Program-made: the position numbers and the translations under genes | The notes under the pieces: model-generated | What the model was told of the DNA's origin: nothing | Database searches by the model: none | The model's input: only the letters and a program-made list of their open reading frames with translations | Shown here: positions 259-4,755 of the stretch, piece after piece | Numbering within the stretch: position 1 is the first letter of the stretch | How the letters are laid out: each line of letters starts with the position of its first letter | IMG/VR virus record: IMGVR_UViG_2609460218_000013 | DNA from: a virus | Taxonomy: Duplodnaviria > Heunggongvirae > Uroviricota > Caudoviricetes | Reading direction: 5' to 3' (one strand) | Length of the DNA stretch: 4,755 nucleotides

Positions 259-474
259 TTACTCTCCCCGTGCAGCCTTACGCTTGTCTTCTTTAATCTT
301 GAAATAAAGGTTTGTCAGATACGTCAGCATGCCAAATACCAGACTACCCAATACACCTATTGCCGCCCACTGTGAGGGCGTGACTTTATCGAGCAACTGT
401 AAAAACCAGTAGCCAGCACTGCCTGCAGAGGTGCTGTAGGCGATGCCCGTTGTTAACTTATCCATGGATTTCAT
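259..474 (-). CDS. Class II holin / pinholin, phage 21 S21 family (EssD/EssQ-like), 71 aa
   Basis: Translation [71 protein letters not shown] matches the S21 pinholin family in length and sequence: two TM segments, a small-residue-rich first TM, a charged C-terminal tail and the Met1-Lys2-Ser3-Met4 dual start. Strong SD GGAGGTGAGG (486..477) sits 7 nt upstream of the ATG at 474..472. The 99-aa track ORF (259..558) is an upstream over-extension with no RBS. Confidence 0.9.
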
Positions 475-564
475 AGCCTCACCTCCGCAGATAACGGATG
501 GTGTACACGGTTTGGTTCGAAGAAGGAAAGAAGTTACATTAGCGTAAGGCCCGAACATCTATTC

Positions 565-664: not shown

Positions 665-1380
665 CTAAGAAAATCTTGATAAATATTGGTGCGGAGGCAC
701 ACCAAAATATCCTCTAAAAACACTTACAAAATATGATGCATTGTCATACCCGCATATTCCCGCCACCTTGCCGACAGTATGGTTACTGTAGATCAATAAT
801 CTTTGCGCCATCATCATTCGTTCTTCAAGAATTAATTTACTAAACGATAATCCTTCGTCTTTTAATTTTCTTTTTAACAAACTCTCGCTCATATATAATC
901 TTGAAGATATATCACAAAGTCTCCATGACGCTGAGATATCCGAGTGAATAATAGCCTTAACTTTACAACCTAAGCTATTAAGACTTCCGAACAAAAAACT
1001 TTGCACTATTTTCTCTGAAGATAAGACAGCAAGACATGCAAGTGATATTTGATTTCTAACTACATCCACGGTTTTGCTATCACAATTCAAGCATGCAACC
1101 AAGTTCTTTAACAATGAAAAATCTTCACATTCTACTATCAAGTATGACGGATAAAACCTTCTTACAGAAAAAGGATGAGAGTGTGTAGTTTTTAAAGAAA
1201 ATCATTAACTGTTTTCTCCTCAACATCTACGATCATTAGATGATCTGTATTTGACGAAAAAAGATCTTTTAAATTGTATTCAATGAGAACAGCATTTCCT
1301 TTTTTAAACAAAATATCTTCTTTACCAATTCGGACACCAAACGAGTTCAACACCAAAATGATAGAACATATGTATGGCAT
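665..1380 (-). pseudogene. AraC/XylS-family transcriptional regulator (AppY/EnvY-like), disrupted by a -1 frameshift
   Basis: Two track ORFs in different frames (1192..1389 and 665..1141) together give an AppY-like protein of about 238 aa. The N-terminal part (MPYICSIILVLNSF...ILFKKGNAVLIEYN...LMIVDVEEKTVNDF) aligns with the AppY N-terminus; the C-terminal part carries the AraC-type HTH (WRLCDISSRLYMSESLLKRKLKDEGLSFSKLILEERMMMAQRLLIYSNHTVGKVAGICGYDNASYFVSVFRGYFGVPPHQY). The frames join if one T is added to the reverse-strand T4 run (+ strand A4 at 1198..1201), changing NDFL-stop into NDFSLKTTHS. Likely start is ATG 1380..1378 (SD AGGTGG 5 nt upstream) rather than the GTG at 1389 used by the track. 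Confidence 0.75.
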
Positions 1381-1880
1381 ATTATCCACCTGATATCATT
1401 GGGGTTACACCAGGTAAGTATAGGTGGAAAATCAATATTCGCCAGTTCAACAATAAGGAAAATCTCATTGCATCACAACTATAAAACCATGTGTTTAACT
1501 CCAGTTATCGCTCGCCACGGGAATATCTGCGGCAGCAGGCCAGTAATGGGTTAAGTGATAACAGGTGTCTGGAAATATAGGGGCAAATCCAACTCACAAA
1601 AAACAAATCATTAAACTAATCTGTTATATTATAATATCTGCGTGCAATAATAATATTATATGCTCTTAATATTCACTTGAAATATCTTCATATAAAAACA
1701 GATTGAATAAAATCTTTTGGGGCTGGTATGTTTACCAACATTAAATTGCATCTCAATGTTTTCTTTAGCGTGAACAGGATTTTTATAAAAACTGACACTA
1801 TGAGCATCATAGCGTAGTTTTTACGATTGTAAATATCCTGCATACAGGAACTCATCACTTTCAGATGATATCGCATACAG

Positions 1881-2840
1881 TTAATTCACCATCAGTCTTA
1901 GAGCCAGTTCTTCCGGATAGGGATCGAAGTAATTCTGTGTAAGCAAGTAATCATTAGGATACTCACCCAGATAATGCTTCAGCAGAGTCAACGGCGCAAG
2001 AAGAGGCAATGTGCCAAAGCGATAGTTAAGTATAACCTCGCTCAACTCTTTACGCTGGCGTGTACTTAAGTAATTACTAAAATACCCCTGTATATGCATC
2101 AGCACATTCGTGTGATTTTTACGTGATGCTGGTTTTCTGAGAATCGCCATCAGATTATCACGATACACCTCAAAGTATGATTCAAGGTCCGCCCACTCGT
2201 GTATTGCAGCCACAAATGGTCCCATATCTTTATAGCCTGCCTGGCTATGCGCCAACAACTGAAGCTTATAACGACTATGAAAAGCTAATAACTCTCTTCT
2301 TGATAATTTCTCCTTGTAAAGGTGATTGAGCTCATGCAAAGCAAAAACTCTTTCAATAAAATTCTCACGAAGCACTGGATCATGTAATCGCCCATCCTCT
2401 TCAACCGGTAGCCAGGAAAACTTTTCCATCAAAGTGCTCGTAAATAGTCCCACTCCATCTTTACGACCTCGATTACCATTTTCATCATAGACACGCACGC
2501 GCTCCATGCCACAGCTGGGAGATTTAGCACAAACCACAAACCCCGATACATCCTTTAATTTGTCCATATAAGAACGACTAAACTCTGTCATTCTCTCTGT
2601 CACATCCTCATTCTGGTCGTGGCTGAAACATATCCGTATATTTCCTTGCTTCGAGCGCACAAGTCGTAGAGCAGGACGCGGAACTGGCAGCCCTATAGCC
2701 ATTTCCGGACATACTGGTCTGAATGTTACCCATTCCACTAATTTGTCCATTAAAAAGTCATCTCTTTTGTGACCACCATCAAAACGAACAGCAGAACCGC
2801 CCAAACAACCGCTGATCCCAATCACAGGTTTTTTTATCAT
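1881..2840 (-). CDS. DUF523-DUF1722 fusion protein (TudS/RudS-like [4Fe-4S] thiouracil/4-thiouridine desulfidase family), 319 aa
   Basis: Intact 319-aa ORF with SD GGAGG (+ strand cctcc, 2843..2847) just upstream. The N-terminal ~150 aa has Cys12, Cys44 and Cys104 (GISGCLGG, PVCPE, VVCAKSPSCG), spaced like the three cluster-ligating cysteines recalled for TudS-type DUF523 desulfidases, plus nearby Glu46 and Ser107/109. The C-terminal ~170 aa is alpha-helical and basic/aromatic-rich, consistent with a YbgA-like DUF1722 domain. Domain calls are by recall, not profile search. Confidence 0.8.
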   Translation of the reverse strand: MIKKPVIGISGCLGGSAVRFDGGHKRDDFLMDKLVEWVTFRPVCPEMAIGLPVPRPALRLVRSKQGNIRICFSHDQNEDVTERMTEFSRSYMDKLKDVSGFVVCAKSPSCGMERVRVYDENGNRGRKDGVGLFTSTLMEKFSWLPVEEDGRLHDPVLRENFIERVFALHELNHLYKEKLSRRELLAFHSRYKLQLLAHSQAGYKDMGPFVAAIHEWADLESYFEVYRDNLMAILRKPASRKNHTNVLMHIQGYFSNYLSTRQRKELSEVILNYRFGTLPLLAPLTLLKHYLGEYPNDYLLTQNYFDPYPEELALRLMVN

Positions 2841-3032
2841 TTCCTCCCCCTTGACTAATTCATTAACACATAAACTTTGTAGTGCACGGACTAAATTGCC
2901 TTTCTGGCTTCATCACTGACAATTTTTCTGTTATTGACTATTCCTAATATAGTAGGAAAGTTCTTTAAGTGATCGGTCGTACTCATCTATCTTTCATACT
3001 TACTCTCAACTATCAAAAGTACAGGATTTATT
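2841..3032. promoter_or_regulatory. Divergent intergenic / promoter region between the desulfidase-like gene (-) and the lipocalin gene (+)
   Basis: 192-bp non-coding spacer between divergent start codons. Contains a direct repeat of TTGACTA (2851..2857 and 2934..2940), a -10-like CATACT (2995..3000) about 30 nt upstream of the lipocalin ATG, and AGGA (3023..3026) as its RBS. No confident -35/-10 pair could be fixed by eye. Confidence 0.3.
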
Positions 3033-3557
3033 ATGAAGTTATGGCCTGTGTTGACTGGCATTGCACTCTCTTTCACTCTTATAGCATGTAAGGCCCCGAC
3101 ACCACCTAAAGGTGTGCAGCCGATTACAAATTTTGACGCCAACCGCTACCTCGGAAAATGGTATGAAATAGCTCGCCTCGAGAACTGGTTCGAACGTGGT
3201 CTGGAACAGGTCAGCGCTACTTATGAAAAACGGAACGACGGAGGGATTCGCGTACTTAACCGTGGATACGATCCAACGAAAAACAAATGGAGCGAGAGCG
3301 AAGGTAAAGCATACTTTACTGGAGATACTAAAACTGCAGCGTTGAAAGTTTCGTTTTTTGGCCCCTTCTATGGTGGCTATAATGTAATCAAACTGGATGA
3401 TGAGTATAAGTATGCTCTTGTCAGTGGTCCGAACAGAGAATACCTATGGATTCTGGCAAGGACCCAAACTATTCCAGATAATGTAAAAGCAGACTATGTG
3501 CGTACCGCTCAAAAGTTGGGATTCAATGTCAATGAACTATTATGGGTTAAACAATAA
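3033..3557 (+). CDS. blc: Outer-membrane lipoprotein of the bacterial lipocalin (Blc) family, 174 aa
   Basis: N-terminal lipoprotein signal with lipobox (MKLWPVLTGIALSFTLIAC, Cys19). Lipocalin motifs are present: FDANRYLGKWYEIAR (GxW), GKAYFTG, LKVSFFGPFYGGYNVI and YLWILAR. Roughly 55-60% identity by eye to E. coli Blc over the full length. Only + strand gene in the window. The symbol denotes the family; this is a prophage-borne copy, not necessarily the chromosomal blc locus. Confidence 0.9.
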   Translation: MKLWPVLTGIALSFTLIACKAPTPPKGVQPITNFDANRYLGKWYEIARLENWFERGLEQVSATYEKRNDGGIRVLNRGYDPTKNKWSESEGKAYFTGDTKTAALKVSFFGPFYGGYNVIKLDDEYKYALVSGPNREYLWILARTQTIPDNVKADYVRTAQKLGFNVNELLWVKQ

Positions 3558-3585
3558 AATCCCCACCCAAAATGATACTTATTAG

Positions 3586-3612
3586 AAAAAAACCAGCCTT
3601 TGGGGAGGCTGG
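3586..3612 (-). terminator. tR'-like rho-independent terminator downstream of Q (reverse-strand orientation)
   Basis: Perfect 7-bp inverted repeat CCAGCCT (3593..3599) / AGGCTGG (3606..3612) with a 6-nt loop. On the reverse strand it reads CCAGCCT-CCCCAA-AGGCTGG followed by TTTTTTT (+ strand A7 at 3586..3592). It lies about 100 nt downstream of the Q stop at 3713, where lambdoid phages place tR'. There is no U-run on the + strand side, so it is unidirectional. Confidence 0.65.
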
Positions 3613-3671
3613 CTAAATCAGGAAACAAGCTGTTATATGATAATAACTACGTTGCGATTCCAACATTTAAA

Positions 3672-3712: not shown

Positions 3713-4089
3713 TTATTTCGAACAATCAGCATCCATCTCCAATCGGAGATCCAACACCATCAGCATGCCCTCCACTACGCCCTCAGCTTTCTGGAGCATC
3801 CTGCCAACCCAACAATCAGATCGCCCATGCTTACGTGCAAGCGCCATAAAAGTCATGCCGCCGACATAATAGTCCACCAATAAATCATGTAAATCGCTGT
3901 TGTTTTTTTCAGGCGAGCCATACATTCACAAATGATCATCGCGTCATCGTCACAGCATTGCGGACGAGATCTTACTTTTGAAGGAATTAATCCCTTAAAA
4001 CCGGCGGCAATGGACGACCAGGTCACATCTTCATGATTATTAGCCGCCCATGCCCCCCAACGCTCAAGAACCATCTGAATATCACGCAT
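3713..4089 (-). pseudogene. Phage antitermination protein Q (short QuuD-type, ERWGAW motif), disrupted by a -1 frameshift in an A7 tract
   Basis: Two overlapping track ORFs (3853..4104 and 3713..3925) in frames offset by one. The N-terminal part ([62 protein letters not shown]) has the LERWGAW signature of the Q antiterminator family. The C-terminal part is [63 protein letters not shown]. They join into about 125 aa if the reverse-strand A7 run (+ strand T7 at 3903..3909) were A8. Likely start is ATG 4089..4087 (GGAG 7 nt upstream), not the TTG at 4104. Confidence 0.7.
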
Positions 4090-4106
4090 CAACTTACTCC
4101 ACAAAA

Positions 4107-4755
4107 TTAGGCCAGCACACCAATTGCCAGCGCGCGATCGATAAATCGAAAAATCAGCTCCAGTTGGGAGCCATACTTCTCTTCAAATGCCACGGTATCC
4201 GTATGCAACTCGTCGTGATGCTTTCTGCACAAAGGCAACACAAAGAGATCATGTGCTTTGGTTCCCATTCCGCCCTGCCCGTGACCAATCAGATGATGCG
4301 GATCGTCGGCTGGCATACCGCAGCAAGCACACGGCTGTGTCTTAACCCAGCGTGTGTATTTCTCCTTAACCCAACGGTGACGTTTAGGCAGCTTCATGAA
4401 AGATTCCGGAGACTCTGGATCAACGGTGATGCTTACCACCGTCTTTTCTTGTGATGGGTTTTGTTGCTGGTGGGCGTGAGGCAACGGTGCAAGATTTTTT
4501 GTGCGCTGTTTCAGTATGCTGGTGGCGGTCTGCTCTCCCGGTACGATGTCGCTTTCACGGTACATTGAGCGGATTTTTTCCGCACGCAACCCCAGCGAAC
4601 GACGTAATACCGCTTCCGGTAGCGCGTCCGCCACCTGATTGCGGACCGCCCACCAGGATAATTCAGCCAGAGATAATTCACGCTCCTGCGTACCGCTTAT
4701 TGCGTGACCGATGACGTCAATCATCCATGCTGACAGGTTTTGATGAGCTAGTTGC
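4107..4755 (-). CDS. Prophage protein with C-terminal Cys/His-rich HNH-like motif (DUF968/YdfU-like), 5' partial; N-terminus beyond the right window edge
   Basis: Reverse-strand frame is open from the window edge to TAA at 4109..4107; there is no in-frame stop between 4755 and the first ATG at 4724, so the 205-aa track ORF is probably a fragment. C-terminal motif is [44 protein letters not shown]. Sits directly upstream of Q, where nin-region nucleases sit in lambdoid phages. The overlapping + strand ORFs (4050..4454, 4451..4714) are treated as antisense artefacts. Confidence 0.55.

Follow-up and report, generated by a model that had tools for sequence, protein, structure and literature searches.

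A probable RudS-type tRNA 4-thiouridine desulfidase gene carried as late-region cargo by a Qin-like lambdoid prophage of Escherichia coli

The DNA analyzed in this study, hereafter called the window, is a stretch of 4,755 nucleotides (nt) from IMG/VR virus record IMGVR_UViG_2609460218_000013. On its minus strand, at positions 1881-2840, it carries an intact open reading frame (ORF) of 319 codons, designated rudS, which very probably encodes a RudS-type tRNA 4-thiouridine (s4U) desulfidase and represents late-region cargo of a Qin-like lambdoid prophage of Escherichia coli. The ORF runs from ATG to stop and is preceded by a strong Shine-Dalgarno-like element (GGGGGAGG, positions 2843-2850, minus strand), read from the sequence and located 2 nt upstream of the ATG. 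The molecular identity of such a protein is already known, since RudS has been named and mutagenised and since a phage orthologue with 91.5% identity to the window protein has been assayed. As an enzyme, the window gene thus offers nothing new.

Domain composition, active site and relatives of the window protein

A Pfam search placed two profiles on the window protein, both far above their cut-offs. The 2-thiouracil desulfurase/DUF523 profile PF04463 covers residues 7-149 (positions 2394-2822, minus strand; E = 6e-40, 137 bits versus a cut-off of 34.7) and thereby defines an N-terminal catalytic TudS domain, while the DUF1722 profile PF08349 covers residues 192-309 (positions 1914-2267, minus strand; E = 4.8e-40, 136.9 bits versus a cut-off of 22.5) and defines a C-terminal helical domain. 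Proteins have been assigned to RudS when a TudS/DUF523 domain is followed by DUF1722, each with E < 0.001 and more than 80 aligned residues (PMC11417400), and the window protein contains both domains in this order. In addition, residues 161-315 match the NCBIfam YbgA model PRK10167 (E = 4.7e-56), although at 189 bits they fall short of the equivalog cut-off (237), and TudS (6z92) is the sole sequence match of the protein in the PDB (E = 6e-4). RefSeq names the protein 'YbgA family protein', and the PHROGs family to which it shows a full-length match (phrog_3275, E = 8.5e-224) is labelled 'unknown function'; these labels obscure the desulfidase half of the protein and its published identity.

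The window protein contains five cysteines, at positions 12, 44, 71, 104 and 110. A HMMER alignment sets Cys10, Cys43 and Cys104 of TudS opposite Cys12, Cys44 and Cys110 of the window protein, the last of which lies within the motif S107-P-S109-C110-G. Conservation was assessed in an alignment of the window protein and 136 relatives (n = 137), mostly representatives of clusters at 50% identity, that are 34-97% identical to it. Cys12, Cys44 and Cys110 are present in 136, 135 and 134 of these sequences, respectively, whereas position 104 is a cysteine in twelve, with lysine as the commonest residue, and Cys71 is retained in four. The same cysteines, i.e., Cys12, Cys44 and Cys110, are given for the phage and Salmonella orthologues in a published table (PMC11417400). 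From these alignments, the predicted third cluster ligand is Cys110, and Cys104 would not occupy a ligand position. Glu46, Arg55 and Ser107 are each conserved in 136 sequences and Ser109 in 130. The residues required of a RudS protein (three cysteines, a glutamate, two serines and an arginine) are all found in the window protein.

These residues could also be mapped onto RudS_KT, the mechanistic reference of the family, by way of a proxy homologue that was found by residue fingerprint and that matches 19 of 36 published positions. By this mapping, C17/C49/C114, E51, R60, S111 and S113 of RudS_KT equal C12/C44/C110, E46, R55, S107 and S109 of the window protein, and among the DUF1722 residues by which RudS_KT contacts the anticodon region (S243, R244, T246, N202 and N203), the 'SR' pair of the loop (S243/R244) aligns with S239/R240.

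An AlphaFold model built on the 137-sequence alignment reached a predicted local distance difference test score (pLDDT) of 96.8 and a predicted template modelling score (pTM) of 0.93. It replaced a poor model built on 32 close homologues, which reached a pLDDT of 69, with values under 50 in the loops of the active site, and matched TudS weakly. According to the replacement model, the catalytic domain is predicted to possess the full TudS fold. The DUF1722 region is all-helical in the model, and structure comparison returned no specific PDB counterpart for this domain. Profiles, cysteine alignment and structure superposition therefore all point to the RudS family, and substantiate the TudS/RudS-like identity and the DUF523-DUF1722 fusion proposed in a first-pass annotation of the window. 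Two of the three cluster cysteines named there, Cys12 and Cys44, stand; the third, Cys104, resulted from TudS numbering being placed on the wrong residue and is replaced by Cys110. The glutamate and serine that were expected nearby correspond to Glu46, Ser107 and Ser109, to which Arg55 can be added.

Fusions of TudS and DUF1722 were named RudS by Jamontas et al. (Nucleic Acids Res 2024; PMC11417400), who found that tRNA s4U fell by 4.7- to 26-fold upon overexpression of any of the six RudS enzymes tested in BL21(DE3), an effect not seen with stand-alone TudS or YbgA. RudS_KT (PP_0741 of Pseudomonas putida KT2440) is the enzyme that was purified and assayed in vitro; mutants in its cysteines, Glu51, Ser111, Ser113 and Arg60 lost activity, its DUF1722 domain contributes to tRNA binding near the anticodon or anticodon arm, and the protein reduced the growth delay induced by ultraviolet A (UVA) light (PMC11417400). 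The RudS_KT gene is located within a light-regulated photolyase-LitR operon (PMC11417400). Its identity to the window protein, estimated from the proxy homologue, is approximately 42%. TudS itself (PDB 6Z92/6Z96) is a stand-alone DUF523 [4Fe-4S] thiouracil desulfidase that is 25-27% identical to the window protein, is without DUF1722 and acts on free 4-thiouracil and 4-thiouridine monophosphate (s4UMP); unlike RudS, it does not lower tRNA s4U in vivo. Conversely, YbgA (b0707 of E. coli K-12) is a stand-alone DUF1722 protein without the catalytic domain and has no effect on s4U.

The closest assayed relative is RudS_vir, one of the six enzymes tested, which is gp66 (H3V29_gp66) of Escherichia phage 1H12 (NC_049947). 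Its overexpression lowered tRNA s4U in E. coli, although less than that of RudS_ST despite a high protein level, and in a growth assay of a uracil auxotroph on 4-thiouracil it gave the shortest lag among the RudS tested (PMC11417400). The 1H12 and window proteins are both 319 residues long and align without gaps at 91.5% identity; they share Cys12, Cys44 and Cys110, and none of their 27 substitutions affects a catalytic position. The copy of phage IdasGreatGrand is 97.2% identical to the window protein and is found in the same gene arrangement. Published results on RudS_vir thus agree with two functions that had been put forward for the window gene, i.e., an alteration of 4-thiouridine at tRNA position 8 (s4U8) and the detoxification of thiolated bases.

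RudS_ST (ORF319, STM1389) of Salmonella enterica LT2 and the chromosomal RudS proteins of Citrobacter, Klebsiella, Serratia and Enterobacter are likewise 319 residues long, are 70-75% identical to the window protein and have the same domain order and cysteine numbering; unlike the window copy, their genes are chromosomal and do not represent phage cargo. For the Salmonella gene, control by a MerR-family regulator has been reported (PMC11417400). The closest chromosomal homologue, with 75% protein identity, is that of Citrobacter, whose gene has a GC content of 54% as compared to 43% in the window. In Citrobacter braakii (CP113163.1; 110-6960 within the locus inspected), rudS is the last of nine tightly packed genes, which encode a SnoaL-like protein, an SDR protein, an amine oxidase, a DUF1365 protein, a cyclopropane-fatty-acid-synthase-like protein, a DUF2878 protein, a 175-residue protein, a DUF3833 protein and RudS. 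This gene row hints that s4U erasure may be connected with an operon for lipid- or oxidation-related stress.

By analogy with the family, a [4Fe-4S] cluster in the window protein would be held by Cys12, Cys44 and Cys110, and its fourth, free iron would bind a flipped-out s4U8 through the sulfur. A water molecule would then be activated by Glu46, the orientation of which is set by Arg55, Ser107 and Ser109, and s4U would be converted to U, while the helical DUF1722 domain would grip the tRNA by its anticodon arm. We infer this chemistry for the window allele because of its conserved residues and fold; it has been shown for orthologues.

Prophage setting and neighbouring genes

The window is a piece of E. 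coli chromosome that is 99.87% identical to strain 1585m1 over two blocks, and at least 80% of it is held by 325 complete E. coli genomes. It spans the part of a Qin-like lambdoid prophage in which late regulation is encoded. The order on the minus strand is the 3' part of ydfU, the antiterminator gene Q, a hairpin, rudS, an AraC-family gene and a P21-type holin gene, and blc is located on the plus strand between Q and rudS. In 1585m1, the region beyond the holin side contains lysozyme, Rz, terminase, portal, capsid and tail genes, of which the portal gene is interrupted by an insertion sequence (IS), and the ydfU/Q stretch is preceded by rem, hokD, relBE, dicB, and exonuclease, excisionase and integrase genes. 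The neighbouring DUF968/ydfU, Q and P21-type holin genes, together with the lysozyme, Rz, terminase, capsid and tail genes of this near-identical genome, confirm that rudS is prophage-borne, as had been supposed from the sequence alone.

Within this region rudS occupies a cargo (so-called 'moron') position, flanked by Q and the terminator downstream of Q on one side and by the holin gene on the other, in late-operon orientation. This is the slot in which Shiga toxin (Stx) phages carry stx, namely between Q and holin. Phages 1H12 and IdasGreatGrand share the order Q, rudS, holin with the window, and the 1H12 cassette also contains blc on the opposite strand between Q and rudS, and an AraC-like gene between rudS and the holin gene, as in the window. 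However, 1H12 was deposited as a complete phage genome, whereas the Qin-like prophage that carries the window copy is degraded, its Q being frameshifted and an IS fragment being present. Based on the GC contents of rudS (43%), blc (44%) and the AraC-like gene (33%), the cassette appears foreign to E. coli.

The Q gene (positions 3713-4104, minus strand) is split into two ORFs, each of which matches half of PF06530. The frameshift lies at a run of seven T residues near 3903-3910, where the intact 125-residue Q of 1585m1 has eight. The split reflects either genuine pseudogenisation, with which late transcription would be lost, or a homopolymer sequencing error. Just downstream of Q, a terminator-like hairpin with a T-run (positions 3591-3614, minus strand) has a 9-bp stem with five GC pairs. 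We infer by analogy that it may correspond to the lambda tR' terminator that Q overrides. An Rfam search at E <= 1 returned only two sub-threshold matches in the window, both of which were treated as chance. One of these, to the Betaproteobacteria toxic small RNA (sRNA) family (positions 3584-3627, minus strand; 28.6 bits versus a gathering score of 50), overlaps this hairpin and most likely reflects the hairpin and T-run of a short pR' leader transcript.

The blc gene (positions 3033-3557, plus strand) encodes an outer-membrane lipocalin lipoprotein (PF08212, E = 7.5e-43; NCBIfam Blc, 312.6 bits versus a cut-off of 267) and is adjacent to rudS in all six loci inspected. Its strand is antisense to the phage late transcript. 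A ratio of non-synonymous to synonymous substitution rates (dN/dS) of 0.096 indicates strong purifying selection. The 130 nt upstream of blc, i.e., approximately two-thirds of the blc-rudS intergenic region, are about 97% conserved between alleles, as compared to coding regions that differ by 5-8%, which suggests that blc possesses a conserved promoter that may be active in the lysogen. A shared origin of blc and rudS in a chromosomal light-response operon was considered and rejected, as the 175-residue protein in the C. braakii row is no lipocalin (E = 1.8 in BLASTP versus the window Blc); it has only a weak chalcone-isomerase-like Pfam match.

Downstream of rudS, the AraC-family regulator gene (positions 665-1389, minus strand) is split. 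Its product, identified to family level by HTH_18/HTH_AraC and NCBIfam matches, is YdeO/GadX/HilD-like and matches phrog_1450 (unknown function). Two one-base insertions, at about 1175 and 1198, distinguish the gene from the intact version in 1585m1, which encodes 237 residues. The gene always follows rudS in the cassette, and its dN/dS is 0.25 when compared between other alleles. Like other AraC-like regulators of prophages, its product could act on genes of the host. Since the frameshifts in Q and in the AraC-like gene are located in or beside homopolymer runs, they could be sequencing errors.

Between rudS and the AraC-like gene, 290 bp downstream of rudS, lies an 89-bp terminal fragment (positions 1502-1590) that is absent from 1585m1 and that matches the ends of thousands of E. 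coli IS3-family elements; we take it to resemble the right end of IS2. In other strains, complete IS2, IS3 or IS1 copies are present at or near the spacer between rudS and the AraC-like gene, which accordingly appears to be an insertion hot spot. Because of the Q frameshift, the insertions in the AraC-like gene and the IS fragment, the window prophage is probably defective, unless these indels are sequencing errors.

At the two ends of the window lie genes of the surrounding prophage. The P21-type class II holin gene (essD-like; positions 259-474, minus strand; PF04971, E = 9.6e-34) is the first gene of the lysis cassette. A mechanical ORF call at 259-558 (minus strand, 99 residues) starts further upstream, whereas the gene annotated as essD in 1585m1 has 216 nt and 71 residues. 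It starts with MKSMDK and thus shows the two initial methionines that characterise the S holin/antiholin pair of phage 21. The 3' part of ydfU (DUF968; positions 4107-4755, minus strand; PF06147, E = 1.2e-77) is cut by the window edge; its frame continues without a stop up to this edge and corresponds to the C-terminal portion of the 349-residue YdfU of 1585m1.

Occurrence of rudS in E. coli and its phages

A rudS match at 90% or more nucleotide identity was found in 1136 of 5426 complete E. coli genomes, and at least 80% of the gene was present at this identity in 1064 of them (approximately 20%). Nearly all matches are chromosomal; the two plasmid-borne ones (of 1189) may represent phage-plasmids or captured prophage fragments. 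In an evenly spaced sample of 30 E. coli matches, about 24 looked uninterrupted and full-length. All four full-length E. coli copies whose surroundings were inspected lie in the late region of a lambdoid prophage. Moreover, in each of the six loci inspected, which include 1585m1, the two phages and a truncated copy in Nico21(DE3), rudS is located downstream of Q, in prophages that differ in their neighbours. Full-length rudS is present in twelve of 50,697 phage records, all of them Escherichia lambdoid phages, and the rudS gene of an E. coli 2013C-4282 prophage is 100% identical to that of 1H12 at the nucleotide level.

The 2024 paper states that E. coli lacks RudS (PMC11417400), as does a 2026 review. 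This statement holds for laboratory strains, but it is false for the species. In the BL21(DE3)-derived strain Nico21(DE3) (NZ_CP053600.1), Q and blc are retained, but rudS is cut by IS3 after its first 147 nt (4001-4147 within the locus inspected). The host of the published RudS assays, BL21(DE3), is therefore presumably without the enzyme owing to an IS-mediated deletion and not through original absence.

Comparison of the window and 1H12 alleles of rudS yields a dS of 0.29 and a dN/dS of 0.144, and judging from these values the gene is under purifying selection. At the protein level the window copy is 99.7% identical to that of 1585m1, with a single conservative change (M70I), and its ORF has remained intact despite damaged neighbours.

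Expression, proposed role and alternatives

As rudS is in late-operon orientation and follows Q and the tR'-like hairpin, Q-dependent read-through is expected in an inducible phage. From this architecture, rudS of an active phage would be transcribed together with the lysis and morphogenesis genes after induction, and the read-through transcript from the late operon would run antisense across blc. In the window, where Q is frameshifted, expression of rudS would consequently need a local promoter. The total number of promoter-like sites in the window equals chance expectation, and a weak hairpin (positions 1795-1815) is located downstream of the rudS stop codon. A LexA box upstream of rudS, which would tie the gene to the SOS response, was rejected as a candidate: 34 of 200 shuffles did as well as the window in one-mismatch matches, and the match near rudS lies inside coding sequence.

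No described phage role of RudS or DUF1722 was found in the literature beyond the 2024 paper and the reviews citing it, in keeping with the first-pass annotation, which knew of none. A tentative proposal, which we regard as possible but far from assured, is that RudS lowers s4U8, the near-ultraviolet (near-UV) sensor of the host, so that no s4U8-C13 cross-link would slow translation or cause growth delay, either in the lysogen or during UV-triggered induction. A more specific version, which we consider rather doubtful, describes RudS as a tRNA-modification eraser tied to the phage life cycle. The protein, made together with the late gene products upon UV/SOS induction or in small amounts in the lysogen, would strip the near-UV sensor and thereby spare the phage the sunlight-triggered tRNA cross-link, a stringent-type growth delay and a loss of translation capacity at the time when it is required.

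A number of observations weigh against these proposals. Q, on which late-operon expression of rudS would depend, is frameshifted in the window; a consensus sigma-70 scan found no promoter-like site with at least 9 of 12 matches in the blc-rudS intergenic region (2841-3032). The 70 nt directly upstream of the rudS start diverge between alleles at about the rate of silent sites, for which reason no conserved private rudS promoter is suggested. No convincing LexA box was detected in the window, where one-mismatch matches number three as opposed to 1.3 expected. The orthologue data derive only from overexpression, in which the tRNA activity of RudS_vir was below that of RudS_ST even at a high protein level. 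The UV role, furthermore, is carried over from chromosomal RudS in light-responsive operons, and the phage copy is without such neighbours. Finally, the finding of rudS copies interrupted by IS1 or cut by IS3 in other genomes argues against the gene being kept for a reason.

Some of the same evidence bears on alternative explanations. The main use of the enzyme might be the TudS-like salvage or detoxification of free thiolated pyrimidines, such as 4-thiouracil or s4UMP from degraded tRNA, as the short 4-thiouracil lag and comparatively low tRNA desulfidation of RudS_vir and the full TudS fold of the catalytic domain would suggest. However, the whole of DUF1722 has been kept and is constrained by purifying selection, as would be expected for a macromolecular substrate, tRNA s4U was indeed lowered by RudS_vir, and the conclusion drawn by the authors of PMC11417400 themselves weakens this explanation; we consider it unlikely. 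Slightly less likely still is that rudS of the window prophage represents a silent, decaying passenger without function for the cell. The frameshifted Q, the twice-split AraC-like gene and the nearby IS fragment are consistent with decay, as are the IS-interrupted portal gene of the closest genome and the IS1-interrupted or IS3-truncated rudS copies elsewhere. Yet the ORF is intact with all catalytic residues and differs from the 1585m1 copy by M70I only, its dN/dS is 0.14 versus the diverged allele, the gene is present in records deposited as complete phage genomes (1H12 and IdasGreatGrand), and the frameshifts at homopolymer runs could be sequencing errors.

It is very improbable that RudS serves as a weapon in conflict between phage and host or between phages, in which loss of s4U8 would alter tRNA recognition by defence nucleases or destabilise tRNAs and thus exclude other phages. 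Circumstantially, rudS occupies the cargo slot of a temperate phage, and a review reports that s4U loss can expose some Vibrio cholerae tRNAs to degradosome attack. Against this, RudS, Blc and the AraC-like protein matched none of the PADLOC defence models at E <= 0.01, rudS has no defence-type neighbours, and no published link was found in the literature. The suggestion in the first-pass annotation of a role in phage-host conflict over tRNA modification therefore gained no support.

The reading of the window ORF as a RudS-type desulfidase carried as prophage cargo has consequences at the level of the species. Its Q-controlled slot, together with purifying selection, raises the question of why a temperate phage would carry an eraser of a tRNA modification. 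Since approximately 20% of complete E. coli genomes carry rudS, near-UV physiology and s4U levels may differ between natural isolates and laboratory E. coli, and, if the proposed role is true, about one-fifth of E. coli strains would differ in their near-UV response from the textbook K-12 and B strains.

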